From: an uncultured Bacilli bacterium
Lineage (GTDB): Bacteria; Bacillota_I; Bacilli_A; RFN20; CAG-826
Direction: 5' to 3'
Assembly (NCBI GenBank): GCA_944363535.1
Contig: CALVUG010000004.1
Coordinates: forward strand, 1 to 45,655
Length of the DNA: 45,655 nucleotides
The translations under genes and the position numbers were made by a program. Each line of letters begins with the position of its first letter. Positions within the stretch are counted from its first letter, which is position 1. Positions 323 through 14,317 of this stretch are shown in pieces. A model generated the notes under the pieces. The model had not been told where the DNA came from. It was given only the letters and a program-made list of their open reading frames with translations, and did not search any database.

Positions 323-916
323 ATGTCCATAGAAGTTATTAAGTTGAATTGTCCTGGCTGTGGCGCGCCGGTATCAATTTCACAAAAAGAATGCGAATAT
401 TGTCATTCGCCTATTAATATTTCTACTTTTAATTCAGTCGCGGACATGTCTCTTTCTTTAATGAACAAATATGCCGGTAGTTATAAAAAAACTTTAGACG
501 CTCATCCGGATGATAAAGACGTGAATGCCTCGATGGGAATGATATATTTGAAACTTAAACTTTTTGATAAAGCTCTCGCCTGTTTTGAAATTGCTATGCA
601 AGATAATTTTGATAATGGAGATATTTTCTTCGCTGCCGCGATTGCGACTTTAAAAGGAAAAATTCCTTTCTTACATACGAAAGATGATATCGAAAAATGC
701 GAACAATATATTAATGCGGCGAATATGATTACTCCTAAAGGCATTTATTACGTTTTACTTAGTTATATAAAATACGATTATTACGAAAGAAAATATTTCG
801 ATACAGTTCCAAATTATTTGGAAACTTTATCGCAAGCAAAAGAATATGGCTACTCCGATATGGATGTAAATTCCTTGTTTGGCATGTTAGGAGTAGCGAG
901 ACCAAATTGGCTTTAA
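323..916 (+). CDS. Zinc-ribbon (CPGC...CEYC) plus TPR-repeat protein
   Basis: N-terminal CxxC-x12-CxxC; TPR-like helices MGMIYLKLKLFDKALACFEIAMQDNFDNGDIFFAAA; no TM segment. Confidence 0.75.
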   Translation: MSIEVIKLNCPGCGAPVSISQKECEYCHSPINISTFNSVADMSLSLMNKYAGSYKKTLDAHPDDKDVNASMGMIYLKLKLFDKALACFEIAMQDNFDNGDIFFAAAIATLKGKIPFLHTKDDIEKCEQYINAANMITPKGIYYVLLSYIKYDYYERKYFDTVPNYLETLSQAKEYGYSDMDVNSLFGMLGVARPNWL

Positions 917-952
917 AAGAGCAAAATCTTTTCTATATAGGAGGTATTATTT

Positions 953-1597
953 ATGGGCTTATTTGCTAGTCAAAAAGAAAAGAATTTAAAAGCTGGTCGC
1001 AGCAAAGAACAAAAACAAGTCATCGACTATTTCTTAGGAAAAGGTGGTTGTTTAGGTTTTGGAAAGCTTAACGACAAAAAATATGATGAACTTGTGAGCA
1101 AAGTCGTTCACGCGATCGACCACAAGAGTGAAGGTTTAAGAAAGATTGGTCTTGATCCAACACAAGTAAGTAAAGTAAAAGCTATTTCTTTTGAAGGTTA
1201 CAATTTTAGTGACAGAAATATTTTTACTAAACTTGGAAAAGATTTATTATGGCGTTCTTCTTCTTATCAAGTGACTTGGGTTTTCTTCACCGATGAAGAA
1301 TTATTCCTTTATCAATGGACGACGAATCTTGATGAAGATGGTAAGAAAGTTAGAACCGCTGAATATTTCTACAAAGATATCGTTAGCATCTACACTGAAA
1401 CTGGTTCAGAAGAACGTGAAGTTCTCAAGAGACGTGGTTTGACGACGAATATTTATCAAAGAATTCTTATGGATTACAATCAATTCATGATTGTTGTCCC
1501 AGGCGACAAATTAGCGATTTCTATCACTAATCCTGAAGCTTCTGAAAGATCGATTCAAGGTCTTAAGGCTTTAGTAAGAGAAAGAAAAGCTAAATAG
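953..1597 (+). CDS. Conserved hypothetical soluble protein, possibly PH-like beta fold in the C-terminal half
   Basis: Strong RBS AGGAGGT upstream; beta-rich segment YQVTWVFFTDEELFLYQW...EYFYKDIVSI ending in a helix (ERSIQGLKALVRERK); fold call is inference. Confidence 0.6.
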   Translation: MGLFASQKEKNLKAGRSKEQKQVIDYFLGKGGCLGFGKLNDKKYDELVSKVVHAIDHKSEGLRKIGLDPTQVSKVKAISFEGYNFSDRNIFTKLGKDLLWRSSSYQVTWVFFTDEELFLYQWTTNLDEDGKKVRTAEYFYKDIVSIYTETGSEEREVLKRRGLTTNIYQRILMDYNQFMIVVPGDKLAISITNPEASERSIQGLKALVRERKAK

Positions 1598-1603
1598 TTA
1601 GTT

Positions 1604-2077
1604 ATGAAGTTTGATAAGCAAGAACATGATTTTGTCTTCAAATATGTTTTAAATCATCCTCTAAGTAGACCTAACACTACACTTACTAAATGTATTTGTT
1701 ATATTATCTTGTTCTTGCTTTTTATCGTTTCATTAGGAGTGGGATTTTATTTCTTATTGAAGAACAGCAATTTTTTAAGTCCCGCTCTTAATGAGCTATT
1801 AAATGAAAATGTTGTCTTAAGCATTTTTATTATCACTCTTATTATCGGTAGTTATACTTTCTTGATTTTATCTCCGTCTATCATCACGGGGCTCGTCCAT
1901 CTTTATCAGCATTACGCTAAAACTGATCGGCGAAGAAAATGTAATTTTAAGCCAACTTGTTCGGAATATGCTTTATTAGCGATAAAAAAATATGGCGTTA
2001 TTCTCGCTTTAATAAAAATTATTCATCGTGTCTATTTCCGTTGTCGTGGTTCGATTTGTCGCATCGATTATCCTTAG
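1604..2077 (+). CDS. YidD-like (Haemolytic domain) protein with two N-terminal TM helices
   Basis: C-terminal HLYQHYA...CNFKPTCSEYALLAIKKYGV...RC matches the YidD CRFxPTCSxYA motif; two hydrophobic stretches at about aa 30-52 and 70-98. Confidence 0.75.
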   Translation: MKFDKQEHDFVFKYVLNHPLSRPNTTLTKCICYIILFLLFIVSLGVGFYFLLKNSNFLSPALNELLNENVVLSIFIITLIIGSYTFLILSPSIITGLVHLYQHYAKTDRRRKCNFKPTCSEYALLAIKKYGVILALIKIIHRVYFRCRGSICRIDYP

Positions 2078-2097
2078 AAAGGAAGGAGAAATAATTT

Positions 2098-3153
2098 ATG
2101 TCATTATTTAAACGTAGTGAAGTGAAAAAAACTTGGACTGAAGTCATTAAAAATGATTCTTCGCCTGATTATTTAATAAATTTGTATCCAAGCGAAGATT
2201 TCAATACGAATTCAACTTTAATTGTGCAGCCAGGCGAAGAAGCCATCTTCGTCGATGGAGGTATAATTAAGCAAGTATTCAGTAATGGCACTTATAAATT
2301 ATCGACGAAAAATTATCCTTTTATCACTAGTCTAAGAAACTTATTTTCTGGTGGTGTTTCCATTTTTAATTGCCGTGTCTACTTCGTTAGAACCACACAC
2401 AGTGTAGAAATTAAATGGGGAACGGATTCACCTATTCAAGTAAGAGATAAATTGTTAGGCATCGCGACGAAAATCAAATGTCGTGGAGCTTACAAAGTGC
2501 AAATAAAAAATCCTCAATTATTTTTGGAAAAATTAATTGGCAACAACATGGATTTTGAGTCTGAAGTTGGTCTAAATAAATACTTTATTAGTCAATTCCA
2601 ATCTAAGATTAAATCAGTTATCGCTCGCGCTTTACTAGAATCGAATATGGAACTTTTAGGAATCGATGCAAGACTCGATGAATTTAGTGAAATTATCGAA
2701 CCTTACATGGATGAAATTTTAAAAGAGTACGGCTTAACATGTACGCGTTTCGTCGTCAGCGCTTTAGATTTAGAAGATGATGAATTGCGACGTAAATATG
2801 ATGAGATTGGCATGGAAACAATTGCCAAGTTGAGACATGCACAGGCTGATAAAGCGGTCTTTGAGACGTTAGGTGATAATTGGCAAAGACAAAGACAAGC
2901 CGAAATTTTAAAAGCGGCAGCAGAAAATGAAGGTAGCGGTGGTGGAGCCGGTATCGGAGTGGGTTTAGGTGCAGGCTTAGGCATGTTTAATGCGATGCAA
3001 AATAATAACTCTAATAATATGGGTTTAGATAAGCCTAAAGGCAATGATGATGTCGCTACAAAACTTCAAACATTAAAAACTTTATTTGACCAAGGCTTGA
3101 TCGATAAAGATGAATATGACGCGAAAAGAAAGGAACTTTTAGCAAAATTATGA
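2098..3153 (+). CDS. SPFH/Band-7 protein of the YdjI (virion-core-like) type with C-terminal SHOCT domain
   Basis: STLIVQPGEEAIFV...GTYKLSTKNYP...VYFV...IKWGT pattern; Gly-rich linker GSGGGAGIGVGLGAGLGM; C-terminal KLQTLKTLFDQGLIDKDEYDAKRKELL (SHOCT). Confidence 0.85.
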   Translation: MSLFKRSEVKKTWTEVIKNDSSPDYLINLYPSEDFNTNSTLIVQPGEEAIFVDGGIIKQVFSNGTYKLSTKNYPFITSLRNLFSGGVSIFNCRVYFVRTTHSVEIKWGTDSPIQVRDKLLGIATKIKCRGAYKVQIKNPQLFLEKLIGNNMDFESEVGLNKYFISQFQSKIKSVIARALLESNMELLGIDARLDEFSEIIEPYMDEILKEYGLTCTRFVVSALDLEDDELRRKYDEIGMETIAKLRHAQADKAVFETLGDNWQRQRQAEILKAAAENEGSGGGAGIGVGLGAGLGMFNAMQNNNSNNMGLDKPKGNDDVATKLQTLKTLFDQGLIDKDEYDAKRKELLAKL

Positions 3154-3839
3154 AACTAAAAAATAAGATTTTAATTGCTACAATCGTATTAGATTTAGTG
3201 TTTATTGTTGTTTTTAATCTTTGTTTCTTTTTAATTGCAGGAACAATCCACACAGAGTCTACTTGGGTAGCGTATGCTTTTATTCATGTTTCTTACTTAT
3301 CTTTAATTTTAATTCCGCTATTAAAAACAAAAACGATGGGAAGTCATATTTATCAAATGACCTACTATGTTGTTGGTGTCATCTACTTTATTGCATCTTT
3401 TATCGCTAATATCGTGTTCTTATGTTTGGAATTAATTGATATCGTTCCTTCTATTACTACGAATGCAGTGCTATTTGGTTTATATTTAATCCTTTTCATA
3501 ACGTTTTACATCTTCAATGAAAAAAGTGCAGAGCAAGAAAGAATTGATCATAAAGAAGCAAGAGTTGTTAAAAATTATGCAGGTCGCATCGCTAGGCTCA
3601 TCGAAGTAGTGGAAGATAGAGACGTTAAAAGACAACTTCAAAATATTCACGATGAAATTCATTCTTTGCCTAGCCAAGAAGCACTTGGTACGCGTACGTA
3701 TGATATTAAAATTGATAATGCCATCGACGAATTAATGCTAGCGGTAAGTGAACAAAATAACGATGAAATCGTTAAACTTTGTAAGAAAATCCATCTTCTA
3801 TTAATTGAAAGAGATGCTTATAGGAAGGAAGAATATTAA
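3150..3839 (+). CDS. Membrane protein, about 4 TM plus C-terminal cytoplasmic helical domain
   Basis: Four hydrophobic segments in aa 1-122, then charged amphipathic helices; ATGA overlap with the SPFH stop codon (translational coupling). Confidence 0.7.
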   Translation: MKLKNKILIATIVLDLVFIVVFNLCFFLIAGTIHTESTWVAYAFIHVSYLSLILIPLLKTKTMGSHIYQMTYYVVGVIYFIASFIANIVFLCLELIDIVPSITTNAVLFGLYLILFITFYIFNEKSAEQERIDHKEARVVKNYAGRIARLIEVVEDRDVKRQLQNIHDEIHSLPSQEALGTRTYDIKIDNAIDELMLAVSEQNNDEIVKLCKKIHLLLIERDAYRKEEY

Positions 3840-3841
3840 TT

Positions 3842-4321
3842 ATGATTTCAGAACTTATTAGCACAATAATAGAAAATAAGAAAATCCATCTTTTATTATT
3901 TGGTTTATGGACAATAATCATATCATACTTTTGTAGGGGTGTTATTATTTCATCTAACTTTCATCTAGGTATAATAATTCTTCTTGCTGGATTCATTTTA
4001 GTTCTTCTGTTGACTGTTTTTTACATAATTAGATTTGGTCTTGAAAAGAAGTGGCTCGCTTTTGTTCTTGTCGGCTGTCTCATTAGCTTTTATCTCTCTA
4101 TGTTTTTAACTACTTTTTTATCCATCGATCCAGTTTATCTTCCACTTATTTCGCTAGGCGCGATGGGTATAGTTCTTATCTCTTACGTTGTGGTTAATCA
4201 CTTTTCTACACAAGAAAATTTGATTCCAACGTTCATTATTTTCTTCTTAACTGCCGCCATTTTTATTGGCCTTGCTTACTCATTATTATTTACTGTTGGT
4301 TTTCCATTACCGGTTTTTTAG
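3842..4321 (+). CDS. Small polytopic membrane protein (about 5 TM), paralog A
   Basis: Almost entirely hydrophobic; starts 2 nt after the upstream stop; shares MxSxLIxxIxENxK and YLPLI with the next gene. Confidence 0.65.
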   Translation: MISELISTIIENKKIHLLLFGLWTIIISYFCRGVIISSNFHLGIIILLAGFILVLLLTVFYIIRFGLEKKWLAFVLVGCLISFYLSMFLTTFLSIDPVYLPLISLGAMGIVLISYVVVNHFSTQENLIPTFIIFFLTAAIFIGLAYSLLFTVGFPLPVF

Positions 4322-4332
4322 ATGAATAAAAT

Positions 4333-4392
4333 TGTAAGAAAATTCATCTTCTTCTCGTGAAAAGAGATGCTTATAGAAAGAAAGGATATTAA
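4333..4392 (+). pseudogene. Duplicated relic of the 3' end of the 229-aa gene
   Basis: Reads CKKIHLLLVKRDAYRKKGY* versus CKKIHLLLIERDAYRKEEY* at 3780-3839; about 51 of 61 aligned bases identical by hand count. Confidence 0.8.
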
Positions 4393-4396
4393 ATTT

Positions 4397-4933
4397 ATGT
4401 TATCAGGACTTATTGGATCTATTTTAGAAAATAGAAAATTAAATATTATAATTGTTTTGTCACTTATCTCATTAATTTTTTATTTTATTTGGCCAGTCAT
4501 CTTTAATCTGATTTGGCCAGTCATCTTTAATTCGGCAAGTGAATTTATTTATTTATTGCTATTTCTTATTATTGTACCAGAAATCTTTGCGATTCCTGCT
4601 GGGATTTCTATTCATTTTTTAAAACGCTCCGGGGAAAATACGCTTTGGTATGTATATTTCGCTTTCGCTACTGTAATATTTTTTATTCCAGCGTTTATAG
4701 GCGCGACGTTATTTTATATGGTGCCTAATTTTCCAAATATGTATTTACCTTTAATTTATCTTGCTGGATACGTTGTAAATTTTTTACTTTATTTTGCGTT
4801 CAATATGGCTACTGATAGGGACCCTATGGGGCCAGTCATCGTTGTATTTGCGGGCCTCGTGGTCGTTTCTATGGTGGCAGCGTTTATCGCTTTATTTGCT
4901 TTTAATTACCCAGGTTTCTTTTTAGATGAATAA
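4397..4933 (+). CDS. Small polytopic membrane protein (about 5 TM), paralog B
   Basis: Start moved from 4367 to the ATG at 4397 because it aligns with the start of paralog A (MLSGLIGSILENRKL vs MISELISTIIENKKI). Confidence 0.65.
   Translation: MLSGLIGSILENRKLNIIIVLSLISLIFYFIWPVIFNLIWPVIFNSASEFIYLLLFLIIVPEIFAIPAGISIHFLKRSGENTLWYVYFAFATVIFFIPAFIGATLFYMVPNFPNMYLPLIYLAGYVVNFLLYFAFNMATDRDPMGPVIVVFAGLVVVSMVAAFIALFAFNYPGFFLDE
4487..4531 (+). repeat. In-frame tandem repeat, 24-bp period (21 bp perfect)
   Basis: ATTTGGCCAGTCATCTTTAAT at 4487-4507 and 4511-4531; encodes IWPVIFNL IWPVIFNS. Confidence 0.9.
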
Positions 4934-5912
4934 AAATGTAAGAATAATCGTATCTTCTGTTATCAGTCTAGTCGTCTTTGCTGTCGTCTTTGCTATCATA
5001 TTTTCTGTGTTTAATTCAAATGATTCACCTAAACCTCCCATCAATACACAATTGGGTGTAGTGGATAATATTGAATATGATAAAGATACGAACATCTTAT
5101 CGTGGGAAGAAATTGATTTTGCTGATTCATACAATGTAAGCATTAATGATAAAGTTGAAAGCGTAAATGAAACTTACTACACTGTTGATGTCGATCCAAG
5201 CATCACTTATTACATCGTAAAAATTCAAGCTTGTGATTCAACTGGAACATACTTATCATCTGAATGGTCAAAACCCTTTGAAATAACATTGACAAAGCAA
5301 GAAAGTCTTGTAAGTGCTGTTAATGAGTTTGCTGAAAGTATCCCTAGTGATGCCTATACAATGCATAATGTAGTAAGCATACACGCGGATGGAAGTCATC
5401 TATTTACTACTGCCGTCTATGAGAGAATGGGAAAAGACTATATTTTGACATATGATACAGACTGTGGAGAAACCATCACAAGTCTAGAAGAAGCACTTAA
5501 AACTCAGAACGTAAATGAAAAAACATACACAGATTCAAAAAATCTTGCAAAACACTATGACACTGCATCATCATTCTTGGCAAGAAGTGAATATAGCGAG
5601 CAAATTCAAGCGTTGGCAGATCAACAATATGATTTAAGTTTTGTAACAAGTCAGGCATATGAAATTACAAGTAATACAATAGGCTTAAAAGGAATATTAA
5701 AGGCTACAAAAGGAAATGAAAGCGATTATTATTCAATTGATTTAGAAATAGGCGTCGGAGATTTTACTAATGAAACTTATAAGTACACGAATGCCGTAGA
5801 GGATGTAATACAAAAAGGTATTATGGAGCACACTTTCGTTGAACTTACTGGGGATTTTAAAGAATATGCCCAACAAGTTGAGGAGATGCAAGCATCACAA
5901 AATAGCAATTAA
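4926..5912 (+). CDS. Membrane-anchored extracellular protein with fibronectin type III-like domain
   Basis: N-terminal TM/signal anchor; VDNIEYD..NILSWEEIDFADSYNVSIN...YYIVKIQACD...SSEWS is an FN3-like pattern; acidic composition. Confidence 0.6.
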   Translation: MNKNVRIIVSSVISLVVFAVVFAIIFSVFNSNDSPKPPINTQLGVVDNIEYDKDTNILSWEEIDFADSYNVSINDKVESVNETYYTVDVDPSITYYIVKIQACDSTGTYLSSEWSKPFEITLTKQESLVSAVNEFAESIPSDAYTMHNVVSIHADGSHLFTTAVYERMGKDYILTYDTDCGETITSLEEALKTQNVNEKTYTDSKNLAKHYDTASSFLARSEYSEQIQALADQQYDLSFVTSQAYEITSNTIGLKGILKATKGNESDYYSIDLEIGVGDFTNETYKYTNAVEDVIQKGIMEHTFVELTGDFKEYAQQVEEMQASQNSN

Positions 5913-6101: not shown

Positions 6102-7331
6102 ATGAAAGATTATTTGAAAGAAGCGGAAGAGGCTTACACTCCTCTTTTAGCTATCGAAGAAGCAAGTAGGTGCTTGCTATGTTTAGACGCCCCATGCTCT
6201 AAGAATTGTCCCGCTGGAACAGACCCCGCTAGATTTATTCGTGCCTTACGTTTTTTAAATGAAAAAGGTGCAGCGGAAGTTATTCGTGAAAATAACGCTT
6301 TAGGGGCCATATGTGCAAGAGTGTGTCCACAAGAAAAATATTGTAAATTAGGTTGTTCAAGAAGTGGTATTGATAAACCAATTGAAATTGGCAAGATTCA
6401 ACGTTACATCACTGATTTTGAAGCTAATTTAAAGATGGAAATTTTAAGGAAGCCAGAAGTAGAATTAAAACAAAAGGTTGCCATCATTGGTTCTGGTCCT
6501 GGTGGTTTAGAACTTGCGGCTTTATTGCGTATGAAAGGTTATCAAGTGACAATCTTTGAAAAAGATGAAAAACTTGGTGGTTATCTAAGATATGGCATTC
6601 CTTCATATCGTTTACCAAATGATGTCTTAGATTTAGAAATTAAGCGTATCTTAGATTTAGGTGTTAAAAATTTAGTGAATCATCCAGTGGACGATGATGA
6701 ATTTAAGAAATTAAAAGAAGAATATGACGCGGTCGTCGTTGGAACTGGTTACGAATTAGCGAAAACATTGCCAATGTTTGAAGATGACCCACATGTCGAA
6801 CTTGCGACTCAATTTTTAAAAAGAGCGAAAAATGAAGGTGGCGATATCGATGTCTATAGCGATACATTAGTCATTGGCGGTGGGGACGTGGCCATGGATG
6901 TCGTTACAACTTTAAAGCGCATTGGAACACCGCGTGTCATCGATGTCGTCTATGAAGAATTTAATGAATTTAGAGCCAGTCAAAAAGAATTGAATGAAGC
7001 TAGAGCATTAAACGTATCCATCATTGATGGTTATGTTCCAATGAGTTACGATGGCAAAGTAGTAACATTTAAACATCGTCATTTACCAAGCGTTATATCG
7101 ATTGAACCTAAACATATCATCTTAGCGGTAGGACAAGTCGTTAGACCACAATTTGATTTAGATTACAATCTAGGTGAAGTAGTGACCAATAATTACCGCG
7201 TCGGTGACTCTAATGTGTTTGTCGTCGGTGATATCGCTAAAGGCGATAAAACAGTCGTTGGGGCAGTTAAAACTGCAAAAGAGGCGGCTTACTTTATCGA
7301 TTCATATTTAACGAAAGCGAGGGAAAAATAA
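6102..7331 (+). CDS. preT: Dihydropyrimidine dehydrogenase subunit A (FAD, 2x[4Fe-4S])
   Basis: [15 protein letters not shown]...[11 protein letters not shown] Fe-S domain; GSGPGG; GGGDVAMDV; overlaps the preA start codon. Confidence 0.88.
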
Positions 7332-8578
7332 TGATTAAGAAAGATTTAAGTATCGAATTCCTCGGTGTGAAATTTAAAAACCCTTTCATGCTTTCTTCTT
7401 CACCAGTCGGCAATTGTTACGATATGTGTGCGAAAGCTTTTAGATCTGGTTGGGGTGGAATTGTTTATAAAACCTTAATTAAAGATCCATGCGATGAATG
7501 TTCGCCACGTTACGATATGTTGACCAAGGAAGCTACTCCTTTCGTTGGTTTTAAGAACATGGAACAACTTACTGAACATCCTTTAGAAGATGATTTAAGA
7601 GATATTACACGCCTTAAAAAAGAATTCCCTGATTGCGTTTTAGTGGCTTCGATTATGGCGGGAAGCGATGAAGATTGGAAAATTTTAGCTAAACAAGTCG
7701 AAGATGCTGGAGCGGATATGATTGAACTTAATTTCTCTTGTCCTCAAATGACCGATACACATCTTGGTTCGGCAATTGGACAAAATCCTGATTTATGTCG
7801 TCAATACTGCAAAGCAGTAAAAAGCGCAACCAAACTTCCTGTTATCGCTAAGATGACACCAAATATTACCGATATGTGCGAAGTAGCACTAGCTAGCATG
7901 GAAGGTGGAGCGGATGCCATCTCTGCTATCAACACGATCAAATCTATTTTAAACGTCGACTTAGATAAAGAAGTAGGCTTACCTATCGTCAATGGCAAAT
8001 CCTCTATTTCCGGTTATTCAGGTAAAGCAGTTAAACCAGTTGCTCTAAGATTTATTCAGCAATTGAGAGATAATCCTAAAACAAGAAATATTCCTATCTC
8101 CGGTATCGGTGGGATTGAGACGTGGCGTGATGCAGCGGAATTTATTTTACTAGGTGCTTCTACTTTACAAGTGACGACCGCTATCATGCAATATGGTTAT
8201 CGTATCATCGATGATTTATGTAATGGTCTCATGCATTATATGGAAGAAAAAGGTGTCGATCATCTTTCTGACTTAGTAGGAAGAGCTAATAAGAATGTTA
8301 TTCCTGCGGAAGAACTTGATCGAGACTTCAAAATTTATCCAAAAATAGATGATGATAAATGTGTTGGTTGTGGAAGATGTTACATCTCTTGTTACGATGG
8401 TTCTCACCAAGCTATGGAATGGGATAAGAAGACGAGAAGACCAACTTGTAACACTGATAAGTGTGTCGGCTGTTTACTTTGTTCCCTAGTCTGTCCTGTT
8501 GGGGCAATATCTAAAGGCGAAGTTGTCTTCAAGCCAGGTCGTGGCAAAGGAAGAAAAACAAAAGACGTTATCATCTAA
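7331..8578 (+). CDS. preA: NAD-dependent dihydropyrimidine dehydrogenase subunit B
   Basis: [26 protein letters not shown]-terminal [11 protein letters not shown] and [12 protein letters not shown] ferredoxin motifs. Confidence 0.93.
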
Positions 8579-8604
8579 TATTTATCAATTATTAACTTTG
8601 AATT

Positions 8605-8629
8605 AAAAGCACCTTTATGGTGCTTTTTT
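8605..8629 (+). terminator. Intrinsic terminator after preA
   Basis: AAAAGCACC-TTTAT-GGTGCTTTT followed by TT. Confidence 0.8.
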
Positions 8630-8842
8630 GGTATGAACATTAATATTATTACCTATTATATTTATCTTCTTACCAGCATTTTATTCTTATACTTAAAGAA
8701 GAATTTTATATTATCAAGCAATAATCTTTATTTCATACATATCTTTAATCGTGTCAAGATTAAAACTGGTAGCTTACTTCTACAATTTTCTATGATAAAT
8801 AAAATTAGTGTCTTTTATTCTAATCTATTGCATAATTAAGTC

Positions 8843-10066
8843 ATGGCTAAGAAAAATAATCCTTTGATCGAAGATAATTATCAAGAAGAATTATTGGATT
8901 TAACTCAAATTCAAGCGGAGGCAAAAAGATGTCTCAATTGTAAAGCTCCGCGTTGTTCTTTGATGTGTCCAATGCAATGTGAACCACATCGTTTCATTGC
9001 TCTACTTAATAGTGGAAATATTGAAGAAGCAGCAAAATTTGTCTACGAGAAAAATCTTTTAAGTTATATATGCGGCCACATATGTCCAAGTGAAAAATAT
9101 TGTGAGAAAAATTGTTTAAGAGGTAGGATTGATCGCGTTATTAAAGTAAGAGAAATTCATCGATATCTTGCTTCATTAAATAGAAGAGACGAAGAAGAAT
9201 TTCAACCATTAAATAATAAACATGCTTTGATTATCGGCGGTGGGCCAGTGGGCTTAGTGATGGCTCATAAACTTGCAAAACGCGGGTTAAAATCCACTAT
9301 TTTAGAGAAAAGCTCATATTTAGGAGGAGCTTTAAGACAGCAAATTCCTGCTTTTAGATTACCTTCTAGCGTCATCGATCATGATTTAAATCCTTTGTTA
9401 AACGAACGCATCGAAATTAAATTGAAGATGACTTTTGGAAAAGATGTCACTTGCGATGATGTCAAGGACAAATACGATGCAATTATCTTTACGACTGGTT
9501 TAGATAAACCTAGAACTTACGATTTTATGTTGGATCATCCAAAAGTTATTTTGGCGCAGGATTTTTTAAAGATGTGCCGTCACGAAAGAGAAATTACCAC
9601 TTACGATAAAATAGTTGTCATCGGTGGGAGTGATACAGCGATGGATTGTCTCACTAGTGCGAAAAAAATCGCTAGAGAAGTCATCGGGGTGTATCGAAGA
9701 GAAAAAGAAAGATTAAGAGCCAATAAAGAATCTTTGGAGATGGGATTTAAGGCTGCGGATGATTTTATCTTTAATCGTACGCCTATTAGATTTGATGAAG
9801 CAGGGAATATGGTCTTTAAAAATTATTATGGTGAAGAGGAGGAAACTATTCCTGCAAGTTTATACGTTTTAGCTATTGGTGTTCTTATCGATGATAGTTA
9901 TTTAAAAGATTTCTTTGAAATTGAAGATGGTGTCATTAAAAATAAGAAAATATCTAACGTTTTTTACGCTGGCGATATGTCATCTAGTGATAAAACATTA
10001 GTAAGCGCACTTTCTACAGTGGAAGATGTCGTTGATAAAGTTTTGAATTATTTAAATTTAGATTAA
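8843..10066 (+). CDS. PreT/GltD-family FAD and Fe-S oxidoreductase (second paralog)
   Basis: RCLNCKAPRCSLMCP...CGHICPSEKYC; GGGPVG; GGSDTAMDC; VYRRE; same size and architecture as PreT. Confidence 0.85.
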   Translation: MAKKNNPLIEDNYQEELLDLTQIQAEAKRCLNCKAPRCSLMCPMQCEPHRFIALLNSGNIEEAAKFVYEKNLLSYICGHICPSEKYCEKNCLRGRIDRVIKVREIHRYLASLNRRDEEEFQPLNNKHALIIGGGPVGLVMAHKLAKRGLKSTILEKSSYLGGALRQQIPAFRLPSSVIDHDLNPLLNERIEIKLKMTFGKDVTCDDVKDKYDAIIFTTGLDKPRTYDFMLDHPKVILAQDFLKMCRHEREITTYDKIVVIGGSDTAMDCLTSAKKIAREVIGVYRREKERLRANKESLEMGFKAADDFIFNRTPIRFDEAGNMVFKNYYGEEEETIPASLYVLAIGVLIDDSYLKDFFEIEDGVIKNKKISNVFYAGDMSSSDKTLVSALSTVEDVVDKVLNYLNLD

Positions 10067-10090
10067 ATTATTAAACATTTTTTCTATTAG

Positions 10091-10120
10091 TAAAATACTT
10101 ATAAATACTTTATAATACTT
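10091..10120 (+). repeat. Three tandem 10-bp repeats (xxxAATACTT) containing a TATAAT box upstream of hydC
   Basis: TAAAATACTT ATAAATACTT TATAATACTT at 10091-10120. Confidence 0.7.
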
Positions 10121-10161
10121 TTTGTTTAAGAACTAATTTGTTTCTAGGAGGAAATAAGTAC

Positions 10162-10653
10162 ATGGCTTCTTTATCAGCCGGGGCGAAAAAACGCATTTTA
10201 GAAATATGTGCGGAATACAAAGATGAACCGACCCCATTAATTATGATTTTAAGTGAAGTACAAAATGAATTTGGCTACGTTCCACTTGAAGTGCAAGAAA
10301 TTATCGCTAACGAATTAGATATCCCAGTTTCGGATGTTTATGGTGTAGTAACTTTCTATGCTTTCTTCTCTTTAAAACCGAAAGGAAAATATGTCATTGG
10401 TGTCTGTCTAGGTACGGCCTGTTACGTCAAAGGTTCGCAACAAGTGATCGATAAGTTCGCTGAACTTTTAAATACGAAGCCAGGTGGAACTTCCGATGAT
10501 GGTTTATTTTCCCTTGATGCTCTGCGTTGCATTGGCGCGTGCGGTATTGCACCAGCGGTTAACGTAAACGGTAAGGTTTATCCAAAGGTAACTGTGGACC
10601 AAGTTCCCCACATCATCGAGGAATATCGTAAATTAGAAGGAGAAAATTTATGA
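10162..10653 (+). CDS. hydC: [FeFe]-hydrogenase gamma subunit (NuoE-like, [2Fe-2S])
   Basis: VCLGTAC...CIGACGIAP; AGGAGG RBS before the ATG at 10162 (the ORF track start at 10138 is probably too early). Confidence 0.9.
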   Translation: MASLSAGAKKRILEICAEYKDEPTPLIMILSEVQNEFGYVPLEVQEIIANELDIPVSDVYGVVTFYAFFSLKPKGKYVIGVCLGTACYVKGSQQVIDKFAELLNTKPGGTSDDGLFSLDALRCIGACGIAPAVNVNGKVYPKVTVDQVPHIIEEYRKLEGENL

Positions 10654-12515
10654 TCGATTCAACGAAATCATTAAATGAGAAAATCACTCATTGTTCGCAA
10701 TGTTTAAAAAATAAAGTCGAAGGCTTAGATGGAAAACGTGCCGTCGTCGTCTGCGGCGGGACGGGTTGTATGGCATCTCATTCCGAAGAAATTTTGGAAG
10801 AATTTAAAAAGCTCATCGAAGAATATGATTTGCAAGATAAAGTAACAGTGAATCACGTTGGTTGTTTCGGCTTTTGTTCGCAAGGTCCATTCGTCAAAAT
10901 TTTTCCTGAAGATACTTTATACCATGCCGTCAAAGTCGAAGACGTTAGAAAGATTGTCGAAGAGGATTTATTGAATAATCATGTCGTTTCTGAACTATTC
11001 TATGAAGATCCAGCAACGCATCAAAAAGTGCAAAGACAAGATGATATTAATTTCTACAAGAAACAAGTACGTCTAGCGTTACATGGCTGCGGCCATATCA
11101 ATCCTGAAAACATCGATGAGGCTTTAGGTTATGGTGCTTTCCAAGGTTTGGAAAAAGCTTTGAGTATGAAACCACAGGAAGTCATCGACTTAATCTTAAA
11201 GAGCGGTTTAAGAGGTCGTGGTGGAGCAGGCTTCCCTACCGGCCGCAAATGGCAATTTGCTTACGATCAAAAAAATGATACAAAATATGTCGTCTGTAAC
11301 GGCGATGAAGGTGATCCAGGTGCGTTCATGGATCGTTCCATCTTAGAAGGAAATCCCCTTAACGTCATCGAAGGGATGATGATTGCAGGCTACGCGATTG
11401 GAGCGAAGAATGGTTACTTCTACGTCCGTGCGGAATATCCTATCGCTGTGAAGCGCTTAAGAATCGCTATTAAAGAAGCGGAAGAATTAGGTCTAATTGG
11501 TGATCATATCTTAGGTACAGATTTCTCTTTCCACGTCCACATTAGATTAGGGGCTGGGGCTTTCGTCTGCGGTGAAGAAACCGCCTTACTTAATTCAATT
11601 GAAGGTAAAAGAGGTATGCCTCGTCCGCGTCCTCCCTTTCCCGCGATTAGTGGTCTATGGGGTAAACCGACGATCATCAATAACGTCGAAACTTTAGCTT
11701 GTGTTCCTTACATTTTAAGAGAAGGTTTAGAAAACTTTACGAAATATGGAACAGAGAAATCTAAAGGAACGAAAGTGTTTGCTTTAGGTGGAAAAATTAA
11801 TAACGTCGGCTTAGTGGAAGTTCCAATGGGCACGACTTTAAGAGAATTAATTTACGATATCGGTGGCGGTATCCCGAATGGGAAGAAATTTAAAGCTATC
11901 CAAACAGGTGGTCCATCTGGTGGTTGTTTAACTGAAAAAGATTTAGATACCCCAATCGATTTCGATAACCTAGTGGCCAAGGGCTCGATGATGGGCTCGG
12001 GTGGGGCTATCGTCATGGATGAAGATAACTGTATGGTCGACGTCGCTAAATTCTATATGGAATTTATTTGCGATGAATCGTGCGGAAAATGTTCACCTTG
12101 TCGTATCGGTACGAAACGTATCTTAGAAATTTTAAATAAGATTGTAAGAGGTAATGGTACGAGACAAGACCTAGATGATTTATTACATCTTTCTAAGACG
12201 ATCAAAGCTGGTTCGTTATGTGGCTTAGGTCAAACGGCCGCGAATCCAATACTATCGACGACAGCGAACTTCATGGACGAATATTTAGAACATATCGATG
12301 AGAAGAAATGTCGTGCGCACGTTTGTAAACATCTCATGCGTTACGTCATCGATGCGGAAAAATGTAAGAAGTGTTCTTTATGTGCAAGGAATTGTCCTGT
12401 TAACGCTATTAGCGGTGTGGTCGGTAAAGAACCATTCGTCATCGATCAAAATAAGTGTATCAAGTGTGGTATGTGCTTCAGCGCTTGTCGCTTCAAAGCC
12501 ATCAACAAGGAATAA
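10650..12515 (+). CDS. hydB: [FeFe]-hydrogenase beta subunit (NuoF-like, FMN/NADH)
   Basis: GLRGRGGAGFPTG, NGDEGDPGAFMDR, GAFVCGEETAL, GGPSG, CGKCSPCRIG, C-terminal 2x[4Fe-4S]. Confidence 0.92.
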   Translation: MIDSTKSLNEKITHCSQCLKNKVEGLDGKRAVVVCGGTGCMASHSEEILEEFKKLIEEYDLQDKVTVNHVGCFGFCSQGPFVKIFPEDTLYHAVKVEDVRKIVEEDLLNNHVVSELFYEDPATHQKVQRQDDINFYKKQVRLALHGCGHINPENIDEALGYGAFQGLEKALSMKPQEVIDLILKSGLRGRGGAGFPTGRKWQFAYDQKNDTKYVVCNGDEGDPGAFMDRSILEGNPLNVIEGMMIAGYAIGAKNGYFYVRAEYPIAVKRLRIAIKEAEELGLIGDHILGTDFSFHVHIRLGAGAFVCGEETALLNSIEGKRGMPRPRPPFPAISGLWGKPTIINNVETLACVPYILREGLENFTKYGTEKSKGTKVFALGGKINNVGLVEVPMGTTLRELIYDIGGGIPNGKKFKAIQTGGPSGGCLTEKDLDTPIDFDNLVAKGSMMGSGGAIVMDEDNCMVDVAKFYMEFICDESCGKCSPCRIGTKRILEILNKIVRGNGTRQDLDDLLHLSKTIKAGSLCGLGQTAANPILSTTANFMDEYLEHIDEKKCRAHVCKHLMRYVIDAEKCKKCSLCARNCPVNAISGVVGKEPFVIDQNKCIKCGMCFSACRFKAINKE

Positions 12516-12535
12516 GGTAGGAGGAAATAGTCTTT

Positions 12536-14317
12536 ATGGCGTTAGTGAATATTAAAATTGAAGGTCGTCCTTATCAAGTAGAAGAAGGGATGACTATCTT
12601 AGAAGCTTGCCGTTCGGTCGGCTATCGTATTCCTTCCTTATGTACGTTTAATAAAGGGCAATGTTCTAAAGCTTCTTGTAGAGTGTGTCTCGTCGCCGTG
12701 AAGGGGGCAAGAGGGCTCGTCGCATCTTGCGTCTATCCAGTTAACGAAGGCATGGAAATTTCTATTTCTAATATCGATGCCATCGAAGCAAGAAGAGCAA
12801 ACGTGGAATTACTTTTATCTAATCACAACATGAACTGCCAACAATGTGATAAAAATGGTCACTGTGAACTTTTAGAAGTGGCTAAAATTGTCGGGGCAAG
12901 AGAAGGAATGTATCAAGGTGAAAAGACACCGACGACGTTCGATAACCTTTCACCTTCACTAGTGAGAGATACATCTAAATGTATCTTATGTGGAAGATGT
13001 ATCGAAAGATGTAAAGACGCTCAAGGTATTGGTATCTTAGGTTTTGAAAATCGTGGTTTCAATACGATCGTCGCTCCGAGCGGTAATAGAAGTTTTGCGA
13101 CTTCACCTTGCATCCAATGCGGTCAATGCGTGAACGTCTGCCCAACTGGGGCCTTGATGGAACATAGTGAAATTGCCTTAGTGGATAAGGCTTTAAAAGA
13201 AGGTAAGAAAGTCATCGTTCAAACTGCCCCAGCGGTAAGAGCCGCTATCGCAGAAGAATTTGGCGCTAAGATAGGTACCGTCGGAACTGGTAAGATGGTC
13301 GCTGCCCTACATCGTCTTGGTTTCTACCGCGTCTTCGATACGAACTTCGCAGCGGATTTAACGATCATGGAAGAAGCTTACGAATTGTTAGGTAGAATAA
13401 AAAATGGTGGTGTTTTACCACAAATTACTTCTTGTTCGCCTGGTTGGATTAACTACTTAGAATATTATTATCCTGAAGTTATTCCGCACGTTTCATCTTG
13501 TAAATCTCCTCATGAAATGTTAGGGGCCATCATCAAATCTTATTATGCAAAAAATCATGATATCGATCCAAAAGATATCTTCGTCGTAAGCGTCATGCCT
13601 TGCGTCGCTAAAAAATATGAAAAAGATCGTCCCGCGAATCGAGCGGTCGATGGTTTAAAAGATGTAGACGCCGTCATCACGACAAGAGAACTTGCGAAGA
13701 TGATTAAACGTGCTGGTATCGATTGGTCTTATCTTCCTGAAGAAGAATTTGATGATGATTTACTTGGTGAATATACTGGCGCAGGCGTCATCTTTGGTGT
13801 CACTGGTGGCGTCATGGAAGCCGCACTTAGAACCGCTTACTTTGCTTTGACTGGAAAAGAATATCCTCTCATCGAATTTAAGGAAGTAAGAAACGTTTCT
13901 TTATTTAAAGAAGCGAGCATTGAAATCGATGGTAAAGTGATTAAGATTGCTGCTGTTTCAGGTATGAAAAACGCTAAACCATTATTAGAAGATGTCAAAA
14001 ACGGTAAGTCACCATATCACTTCATCGAAATTATGGGTTGTCCTGGTGGCTGCATCAATGGTGGTGGTCAACCTTACGTCCATCCGAATCTTCTTCCTAA
14101 CGAAGAGGCAAATATTTTAGATACTTACATCCAAAAACGCGCAAGAGTCCTCTATAGCGAAGATGAACGTTTAGTCGTAAGACAATCGCACAATAACCCA
14201 GATATCAAACGTCTTTATAAAGACTATCTTGGTGAACCATGTTCCCATTTAGCGCACGAATTATTACATACGCATTACGATGCGCATCGTGAGAAATATC
14301 CGCAGGTGAAAAAATAG
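12536..14317 (+). CDS. hydA: [FeFe]-hydrogenase catalytic subunit (group A, trimeric type)
   Basis: H-cluster motifs TSCSPGW, MPCVAKKYE, EIMGCPGGCINGGGQP; N-terminal [2Fe-2S], His-ligated [4Fe-4S] and 2x[4Fe-4S] motifs. Confidence 0.95.
   Translation: MALVNIKIEGRPYQVEEGMTILEACRSVGYRIPSLCTFNKGQCSKASCRVCLVAVKGARGLVASCVYPVNEGMEISISNIDAIEARRANVELLLSNHNMNCQQCDKNGHCELLEVAKIVGAREGMYQGEKTPTTFDNLSPSLVRDTSKCILCGRCIERCKDAQGIGILGFENRGFNTIVAPSGNRSFATSPCIQCGQCVNVCPTGALMEHSEIALVDKALKEGKKVIVQTAPAVRAAIAEEFGAKIGTVGTGKMVAALHRLGFYRVFDTNFAADLTIMEEAYELLGRIKNGGVLPQITSCSPGWINYLEYYYPEVIPHVSSCKSPHEMLGAIIKSYYAKNHDIDPKDIFVVSVMPCVAKKYEKDRPANRAVDGLKDVDAVITTRELAKMIKRAGIDWSYLPEEEFDDDLLGEYTGAGVIFGVTGGVMEAALRTAYFALTGKEYPLIEFKEVRNVSLFKEASIEIDGKVIKIAAVSGMKNAKPLLEDVKNGKSPYHFIEIMGCPGGCINGGGQPYVHPNLLPNEEANILDTYIQKRARVLYSEDERLVVRQSHNNPDIKRLYKDYLGEPCSHLAHELLHTHYDAHREKYPQVKK

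Follow-up and report, generated by a model that had tools for sequence, protein, structure and literature searches.

A conserved five-gene cassette that encodes an SPFH protein and a membrane-anchored YidD protein, a possible platform for protein insertion or export

We describe a conserved cassette of five genes, g1–g5, at the start of contig CALVUG010000004.1 (assembly GCA_944363535.1), which comes from an uncultured Bacilli bacterium of a chicken-gut metagenome. The stretch of 45,655 nt that was analysed (positions 1–45,655 of the contig) is called the window below; the cassette region is carried only by metagenome DNA contigs. The five genes encode a putative zinc-ribbon protein with TPR-like helices (g1), a soluble protein of a family that has no Pfam model (g2), a YidD protein with two transmembrane (TM) segments (g3), a soluble SPFH protein (g4), and a four-TM protein that ends in a helical bundle (g5). 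In the window they are followed by three further genes, g6–g8, and an initial annotation of the window, made from the letters alone, had grouped all eight as a candidate envelope-stress or anti-phage system. We read the cassette as an SPFH platform at the cytoplasmic face of the membrane, similar to SamGHI of Bacillus subtilis and probably serving protein insertion or export, and put the probability of this reading at roughly 0.4. It draws on the conservation of the five genes, on the domains of their products, and on a subfamily of relatives in which an ATPase gene and a polymorphic toxin gene lie inside the cassette.

Conservation of the cassette

Seeded solely with an alignment of g2, a scan of genomes chosen to represent one species each found 113 genomes of gut and environmental bacteria, from which 80 loci were examined; with earlier loci added, the combined set numbers 88 (locus identifiers begin with L), and all of its open reading frames (ORFs) were compared by iterated phmmer and hmmsearch. 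Bacteroidota contribute ∼44 of the 80 loci, Clostridia 22 and Spirochaetota 6, and there is one metagenome-assembled genome each from the Acidobacteria, the Alphaproteobacteria and the Melainabacteria. Clostridia carriers include Ruminococcus albus AR67, Faecalibacterium prausnitzii and Roseburia.

Homologues of g1, g3, g4 and g5 are present in 79, 82, 79 and 44 of the 88 loci, respectively. Where Bacteroidota loci give no g5 match, the gap between g4 and g1 encodes a protein with four TM segments and a helical C-terminus, and several of these proteins are weakly related to the g5 profile. In the subset of 42 loci with full flanks (at least 0.8 kb upstream and at least 7.5 kb downstream of g2), g1 is found in 42/42, g3 in 41/42, g4 in 39/42, and g5 in 35/42 when the divergent Bacteroidota proteins of like architecture encoded between g4 and g1 are counted with it; all five are present in 34/42, and two of the misses in this subset are extended loci that run past the fetched stretch. 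The gene order is g1-g2-g3-g4-g5 in Clostridia, Spirochaetes and the window, and g2-g3-g4-g5-g1 in Bacteroidota. Three relatives of g2 found early had the same company, with g2, YidD, Band_7_1, a ∼200-aa protein and a TPR protein adjacent to one another.

Homologues of g1–g5 form a tight cassette across Bacillota, Bacteroidota and Spirochaetota, and the co-occurrence in other genomes on which the initial annotation had staked its proposal is what was found for these genes. The conserved unit is five genes, g1–g5. The larger eight-gene unit first proposed does not survive in full, as g6–g8 are not part of it, and this lack of conservation speaks for regarding the eight genes as a chance run of small co-directional genes with no functional unit among them. 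We give that idea hardly any weight: g1–g5 stand in fixed order in at least five phyla in a search seeded with g2 only, which already refutes it for those five.

The flanks are otherwise unrelated from locus to locus, with small XRE-type helix-turn-helix (HTH) genes and occasional tyrosine recombinases or integrases recurring; across the 80 loci no recurrent flanking family was found beyond HTH, integrase and ATP-binding cassette (ABC) genes. An XRE or Cro/C1-type HTH gene lies directly upstream on the same strand in eight Bacteroidota loci and divergently in five Spirochaete (Treponema) loci, and such genes are candidate dedicated regulators of the cassette. Examples are:

L037, 7563–7856: HTH gene upstream of the cassette
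L030, 1390–1743, – strand: HTH gene upstream of the cassette

One locus is broken: at L055:9930–14807, behind a g1–g3 remnant, an AbiEi/AbiEii pair and type I restriction-modification (RM) genes (HsdM, HsdS) stand in place of g4–g5, apparently through insertion of a defence island.

We found no paper in the searchable literature that mentions YidD together with SPFH or Band-7, nor any description there of the five-gene SPFH cassette. The combination also has no match in PADLOC, in keeping with the first impression that it is not a named system.

Genes and predicted proteins

An ORF listing of the window gives eight co-directional ORFs on the + strand, as follows:

g1, 323–916, + strand, 197 aa: soluble, putative zinc ribbon and TPR-like helices; core gene
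g2, 953–1597, + strand, 214 aa: soluble, family without a Pfam model; core gene and marker of the genome scan
g3, 1604–2077, + strand, 157 aa: two TM segments and a C-terminal YidD domain; core gene
g4, 2098–3153, + strand, 351 aa: soluble Band_7_1 SPFH protein with a Gly-rich low-complexity linker and a C-terminal SHOCT domain; core gene
g5, 3150–3839, + strand, 229 aa: four TM segments, the fourth predicted to continue into a cytoplasmic helical bundle; core gene
g6, 3842–4321, + strand, 159 aa: small polytopic membrane protein; lineage-specific accessory gene
g7, 4367–4933, + strand, 188 aa: small polytopic membrane protein; lineage-specific, fast-evolving accessory gene
g8, 4926–5912, + strand, 328 aa: N-terminal membrane anchor and extracytoplasmic body; outside the cassette proper

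The tight packing described at first is exact in its coordinates and in all three of its junctions, namely a 4-nt ATGA overlap at 3150–3153, a 2-nt gap at 3840–3841 and an 8-nt overlap at 4926–4933. The statement that the cluster has no internal terminator needs qualification: terminator-like hairpins do occur on the + strand at 2745, 4629 and 4691, but all three are weak, with stems of 5–6 bp and poor T tails. Searches of Pfam and NCBIfam bear out, for all eight proteins, that no enzyme domain is recognisable. Pfam also detects no NfeD domain and no protease in g1–g8, NCBIfam reports YidD plus weak TPR matches and nothing else, and PHROG matches on window proteins are confined to the SHOCT tail of g4.

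A hydropathy scan, joined for g5 by an AlphaFold2 (AF2) model, gives no TM segment in g1, g2 and g4, two in g3 and four in g5. Because these numbers are even, both termini of g3 lie on one side of the membrane, as do both termini of g5, and the K/R-rich N-termini predict that this side is the cytoplasm. With the termini so placed, both the YidD domain of g3 and the bundle of g5 would be turned towards the soluble proteins g1, g2 and g4.

The zinc-ribbon and TPR matches of g1 all fall under the Pfam cutoffs, so that the label first given to this protein is sub-threshold by that measure, but the four cysteines of the ribbon (C10, C13, C24 and C27) are conserved at 97–100% in 80 homologues.

The g2 protein has no match in Pfam, NCBIfam, PADLOC or PHROG. 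Its family comprises 1,223 representatives of 50%-identity clusters at E ≤ 1e-3 in an exhaustive profile search, and 17 relatives in a word-indexed database; the closest taxon-labelled relatives are from Clostridia, at 46–48% identity. The AF2 model (mean predicted local distance difference test score (pLDDT) 81, predicted template-modelling score (pTM) 0.79) has four N-terminal helices, a long antiparallel sheet of about nine strands and a C-terminal helix. Some g2 homologues carry an extra N-terminal TM helix, or a fusion to a zinc ribbon and a TM segment, which fits a domain that acts at the inner face of the membrane.

The YidD domain of g3 passes the cutoffs of both Pfam (PF01809, E 1e-13, 51.3 bits against a cutoff of 27) and NCBIfam (TIGR00278, 47.5 bits against 40), and its TM segments span residues ∼34–52 and ∼65–90, so that the description of g3 as a TM-YidD protein holds. 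Residues R110, C113, P117, C119, S120 and C147 are invariant in 83 homologues, and the N-terminus has a conserved Y/R/P motif.

Both domains assigned to g4 are likewise confirmed by Pfam, Band_7_1 (PF13421) at E 3e-37 (128.8 bits against a cutoff of 24) and SHOCT at E 3e-8; a Gly run at 287–293 is conserved, and the homologues of Bacteroidota have GYF_2 instead of SHOCT. Band_7_1 with SHOCT is the most frequent SHOCT architecture (PMC3581485). SHOCT had been called an established oligomerisation tail, a status it does not have, since the only test of it, made in the paper that defined the domain, was negative (PMC3581485). A proposal from comparative work is that SHOCT-like domains tether proteins to the inner leaflet (PMC11237479).

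In the AF2 model of g5 (pLDDT 88) four TM helices form a bundle, and the last of them runs on into a second helical bundle, predicted to be cytoplasmic, in line with the four-TM helical label first given to this protein. The protein belongs to no Pfam family, and 31 homologues searched against Pfam gave only scattered chance matches. Both g2 and g5 thus have confident predicted structures with no counterpart in the PDB: Foldseek gave no match at E ≤ 1e-3 for either, g2 having none in the viral structure library BFVD as well (template-modelling scores for g2 against PDB and BFVD and for g5 against PDB were mostly ∼0.2–0.3, the highest being 0.42), and neither profile matched a PDB sequence below E 0.02.

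Comparison with characterized systems

The closest characterized system is the pspA-ydjGHI (pspA-samGHI) operon of B. subtilis, which the cassette resembles in architecture without being a member of it. The SPFH protein of that operon, YdjI/SamI, is soluble and needs membrane partners, among them a Zn-finger protein (PMC8581546, PMC13713150, PMC11237479); more generally, SPFH proteins form ring-like megacomplexes (PMC13713150). Like YdjI, g4 is soluble and consists of a Band_7_1 SPFH domain, a low-complexity linker and a small C-terminal domain. The two operons share integral membrane proteins of their own, which recruit the SPFH protein in pspA-ydjGHI, and a zinc-ribbon or zinc-finger partner. 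YdjG, however, has two zinc ribbons, an NTF2-like domain and a TM segment (PMC11237479), whereas g1 has one four-Cys ribbon with TPR-like helices and no TM segment. No protein of g1–g8 has a TPM_phosphatase match at E ≤ 0.1 that would correspond to YdjH, and the cassette contains no PspA gene; the PspA Pfam family is likewise missing from the gene tables of L001–L007, so that the term PspA-less used at first is apt. Found in the cassette but not in that operon are the TM-YidD protein, the four-TM helical protein and g2, together with a SHOCT or GYF_2 tail where YdjI has a Zn finger. The cassette also occurs mainly in Bacteroidota, Clostridia and Spirochaetes, unlike the B. subtilis operon. One of the four features that define pspA-ydjGHI is therefore present, the type of SPFH protein, and three are absent (PspA, the YdjG architecture and the TPM protein). 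The envelope-stress likeness drawn at the outset stands for the SPFH protein, the zinc ribbon and the anchors, but not for the domains of YdjG and YdjH.

Other SPFH proteins form cages with membrane partners, as in HflK/C–FtsH and the stomatin–NfeD pairs QmcA–YbbJ and YqiJK. The cassette is similar in that an SPFH gene sits beside genes for small integral partners, and a ring that fences a membrane patch would be expected here too. It differs in that g4 has no TM anchor of its own, that no NfeD domain and no protease was detected, and that the partners are of YidD type and of four-TM helical type.

Canonical YidD is a protein of ∼85 aa, encoded beside rnpA and yidC, and is accessory to YidC-dependent insertion. 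Besides passing the family cutoffs, g3 keeps the Cys, Pro and Ser motif of these proteins, but it is about twice the canonical length, has two N-terminal TM segments and sits in an SPFH cassette.

Loci with an ATPase and polymorphic toxins

In 13 of the 88 loci an insert of 4–6 kb lies between g3 and g4:

Loci with the insert: L012, L013, L018, L020, L029, L032, L046, L062, L076, L080, L081, L083, L087

Its first gene encodes a highly conserved ATPase of ∼890 aa (DUF87/HerA, E 1e-9; FtsK_SpoIIIE, E 6e-5) that has no TM segment. A metagenome scan seeded with this ATPase added 80 more loci (L092–L171), and the variant is also found in a few Bacteroidota. In all 30 loci with at least 7 kb of downstream sequence the ATPase gene is followed downstream by g4 (30/30), and homologues of g1–g3 lie upstream of it in 32 of 48 loci, several of the others having different zinc-ribbon proteins there. 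In this extended subfamily g4 and g5 are obligately associated with the ATPase and toxin module. In some ATPase loci, as at L128:2811–3779 and L133:5563–6534, g2 is fused to an N-terminal zinc ribbon and TM segment, and a separate YidD gene was not detected.

The first ORF after the ATPase gene encodes a protein that is 24–43% Asp plus Glu, with long acidic repeats, no hydrophobic signal sequence and a variable C-terminus. In 68 loci it falls into 23 C-terminal clusters, two of which are not the acidic protein (a small membrane ORF in L080, and in L062 a downstream ORF, the toxin being hidden by 894 masked bases), and shared N-termini are joined to different C-termini. The C-termini include a WHH/colicin DNase (L083), Papain fold toxin 1, a glutamine deamidase (L020, L122 and L167), DUF6782/SprT-like metallopeptidases (L087 and L163), and a weak C39-like peptidase match just below the cutoff (L099). 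One further sub-threshold match, at E 0.006, linked a toxin C-terminus with a metalloprotease family and was set aside as generic HExxH similarity.

A small ORF of ∼160 aa follows the toxin gene in several loci (five of the first nine examined) and co-varies with the toxin C-terminus, in that L080 resembles L081 and L012 resembles L062. Judged from these sequences, swapped C-termini with a co-varying ORF are the signature of polymorphic toxin/immunity pairs, and the ∼160-aa ORF looks like an immunity gene. The toxins of L081, L080, L020 and L062 have a tandem motif of ∼45 aa between the acidic region and the toxin domain, with a consensus of roughly SEYMNxHNYGxDDFATYSQDPEWQxL and no Pfam match, perhaps a pre-toxin or recognition repeat. 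Neither the ATPase nor a polymorphic-toxin or immunity gene is present in the window itself. The initial annotation was right that the gene neighbourhood is real. These relatives, whose cassettes hold the ATPase and toxins and give the most informative context, were not visible to it.

Among the routes of polymorphic toxin trafficking in a comprehensive survey from 2012 none is SPFH-associated, and FtsK/HerA ATPases are linked there only to the type VII secretion system (T7SS) (PMC3482391), and we found no literature on an arrangement of polymorphic toxins with HerA or SPFH such as this one. The extended relatives do resemble the T7SSb/LXG systems of Bacillota in that both place a P-loop ATPase gene of FtsK/HerA class next to signal-less toxins with swappable C-termini and immunity-like genes. 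They differ from them in several ways: the ATPase has a single DUF87/HerA P-loop region and no TM segment, unlike the multi-domain EssC; the toxin N-terminus is polyacidic, and a Pfam scan of whole toxins gave no LXG or WXG100 domain, small WXG100 genes not having been searched for systematically; the partners are SPFH, YidD, TPR, g2 and four-TM proteins rather than EsaA, EssA and EssB; and a few carriers are Bacteroidota.

The ATPase also brings HerA defence systems to mind (Sir2-HerA, DUF4297-HerA and the mad8 component of MADS), as its PADLOC matches, at E 1e-6 to 5e-18, are to HerA and mad8 models and its partners are variable proteins of nuclease or protease type. An anti-phage or abortive-infection role could be built on this, in which the complex would sense perturbation of the envelope by a phage and, in the extended form, the ATPase would activate the variable nuclease, protease or deamidase and so kill the infected cell. 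Several observations lean this way: the PADLOC mad8 match (E 5e-18) alongside several HerA defence models, the upstream HTH genes, of XRE or control-protein-like type, in loci of Treponema and Bacteroidota, the integrases that adjoin several loci, the AbiE pair and type I RM system that follow the g1–g3 remnant in L055, the variable poly-G tract of the window promoter, and a distribution that is patchy and crosses phyla. The HerA matches, however, are limited to the generic P-loop core, the proteins that accompany the ATPase match no PADLOC model, and the co-varying ORF suggests immunity. The toxins look to be of the classic polymorphic type, which points to inter-bacterial conflict rather than suicide. 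PADLOC gives no match for g1–g6 and only chance-level matches for g7 and g8 (E 0.002–0.02), the window has no ATPase, and the SHOCT tail is alone in matching PHROG. Nothing points specifically to the anti-phage system first suggested, and we consider it improbable.

Function

By analogy with SamGHI (PMC8581546, PMC13713150) and with SPFH ring complexes, the proteins of g1–g5 quite likely form one complex. In it g4, which is of the YdjI/SamI type, would assemble as an SPFH ring or patch and be held at the membrane by the integral proteins g3 and g5, with g1 and g2 as soluble adaptors. What such a complex does is a more tentative matter, on which we stay below even odds: it may be a fenced membrane station for protein insertion or export, at which the YidD module would assist insertion. 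We infer this from the YidD domain, from the position of the toxin module inside the cassette and from the toxins having no signal sequence. That the add-on genes g6–g8 of the window encode polytopic membrane and membrane-anchored proteins is a further possible link to trafficking. In the extended form, the HerA/FtsK-like ATPase would drive export of the signal-less, polyacidic polymorphic toxins, whereas what the window holds is a minimal form with no ATPase, under a promoter with a slippage-prone poly-G spacer.

ATPases of the HerA/FtsK-like class normally pump DNA. One may then go further and suppose that the cassette is the membrane core of an unrecognised protein-export pathway in gut Clostridia, Bacteroidota and Spirochaetes, that the extended form is a new toxin secretion system whose ATPase threads a polyacidic, DNA-like leader through the SPFH-fenced site, and that the window holds a minimal, phase-variable version for other clients. 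This larger picture is speculative, and we think it unlikely to hold in all its parts.

A number of points weigh against a platform for insertion or export. About 85% of the loci of the g2 scan (75/88), the window included, have neither ATPase nor toxin, which means that the core function depends on neither of them, and the toxin module could simply be making use of a scaffold whose purpose lies elsewhere. The minimal form encodes no obvious channel-former and no energy source or motor. The structures of g2 and g5 were predicted as monomers, physical assembly resting on analogy. Homologues of g8 live without the cassette, so that g8 is not a dependent client. The biochemical role of YidD is weakly defined. 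Bacteroidota and Spirochaetes are diderm, and no component of the cassette would reach across an outer membrane. A HerA-type ATPase that matches mad8 and HerA models of PADLOC, with variable nuclease and protease partners, fits abortive-infection designs as well.

The main rival is a scaffold for membrane homeostasis or envelope stress that involves no trafficking. Here g3 and g5 would anchor an SPFH ring whose role would be to organise or stabilise membrane regions and to tune the activity of a membrane partner, much as SamI restrains SamH in B. subtilis, and the ATPase and toxin would be unrelated cargo that landed at a permissive spot. This accords with the YdjI/SamI architecture of g4, with the zinc-ribbon partner and membrane anchors, with the 75 of 88 loci that are free of the module, and with the link of Band-7 and SHOCT-like domains to complex assembly at the inner leaflet (PMC11237479). 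It is harder to reconcile with the module itself, which is always at the g3/g4 position and followed by g4 in every one of the 30 loci, so that a chance landing is difficult to argue. Neither a PspA gene nor another recurrent effector or stress regulator is found nearby, and a TPM domain protein and a YdjG-type architecture are also missing. A phase-variable promoter and XRE-type regulators would, moreover, be unusual for a housekeeping function. On balance we hold such a scaffold to be rather unlikely, if clearly ahead of an anti-phage role.

SPFH proteins are found in every domain of life, and the clients of the bacterial ones are mostly unknown. The cassette offers a defined and widely distributed five-protein SPFH module with an unusual membrane-anchored YidD protein, and it can be studied in cultured gut carriers (R. 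albus, F. prausnitzii, relatives of Bacteroides and Prevotella, and Paludibacter), with Paludibacter sp. 221 and Mediterranea massiliensis among the cultured carriers. Its ATPase–toxin subfamily gives a concrete hypothesis for the purpose of an SPFH scaffold and may reveal a new route of inter-bacterial toxin delivery in the gut microbiome. Should the cassette turn out to be a homeostasis scaffold only, it would still widen the SamGHI concept beyond Bacilli and PspA.

Promoter region

Upstream of g1 lies one candidate promoter:

256–286, + strand: putative sigma-70-type promoter, with –35 box TTGACA at 256–261, a 19-nt spacer and –10 box TATTAT at 281–286

The spacer contains a run of ten G (G10) at 271–280, which is the sole run of eight or more G or C in the 45.6-kb window; because of this run, the spacer exceeds the 16–18 nt range of our consensus scan. 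What had been called one strong upstream promoter does have both hexamers, but it would be strong only at shorter tract lengths. The tract is G10 in the window, in L002 and L009 and in runs X1 and X2, and G9 in L001, in L006/L010 and in run X3; one contig ends exactly at it. In relatives of ∼95% identity, whose flanks differ, both hexamers and the tract persist. This variation, read from contigs rather than from raw reads of a single population, fits slipped-strand change of the spacer length (19, 18 or 17 nt).

Positions 1–241 of the window lie inside a multi-copy repeat that ends ∼15 bp upstream of the –35 box. Runs X1 and X3 place the sequence up to ∼241 in a contig of 1,502 bp with 4–5 times the depth of the operon contig (86 versus 23; 42 versus 8), and both ends of this contig match here in opposite orientation, which suggests a repeat with inverted ends like those of an insertion sequence. 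The sequence 5′ of the –35 box in L006, L009 and L010 differs from that of the window, and the gene upstream of the cassette is glnA in L006, L010 and L089.

Accessory and neighbouring genes

The three genes that follow the cassette are not core components, though they are co-located and probably co-transcribed with it. The hydropathy scan gives ∼5 TM segments each in g6 and g7, which are weak paralogues (22% identity, E 2e-5), and one N-terminal segment in g8. Both g6 and g7 are confined to the window's own clade, g6 being found in 5 of the 88 loci. The g7 type is only 57–67% identical in close relatives, compared to 95–96% for g2, and the order of the two genes is swapped between loci: the tail reads g6-g7-g8 in the window, g6-g7 in L010, and g7 type, g6 type, g8 in L089. 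In L009, whose g2 is 96% identical, a g7-type gene is followed by a gene for a 444-aa double-zinc-ribbon protein (11510–12841) at the place of g8.

The g8 gene is absent from the ∼95% relative L006/L010. Its product has 66 homologues; the neighbourhoods of those at 46–49% identity are unrelated and contain no SPFH genes. It has no Pfam domain, and the FN3 domain once assigned to it finds no support in Pfam or in a sequence search of the PDB.

Further downstream, at 6102–12376 and beyond, the window carries preT and preA-like genes, a second PreT/GltD paralogue and an NADH-dependent [FeFe]-hydrogenase cluster, which look unrelated to the cassette. The same arrangement of preT and hydrogenase genes lies downstream in L006 and L089.

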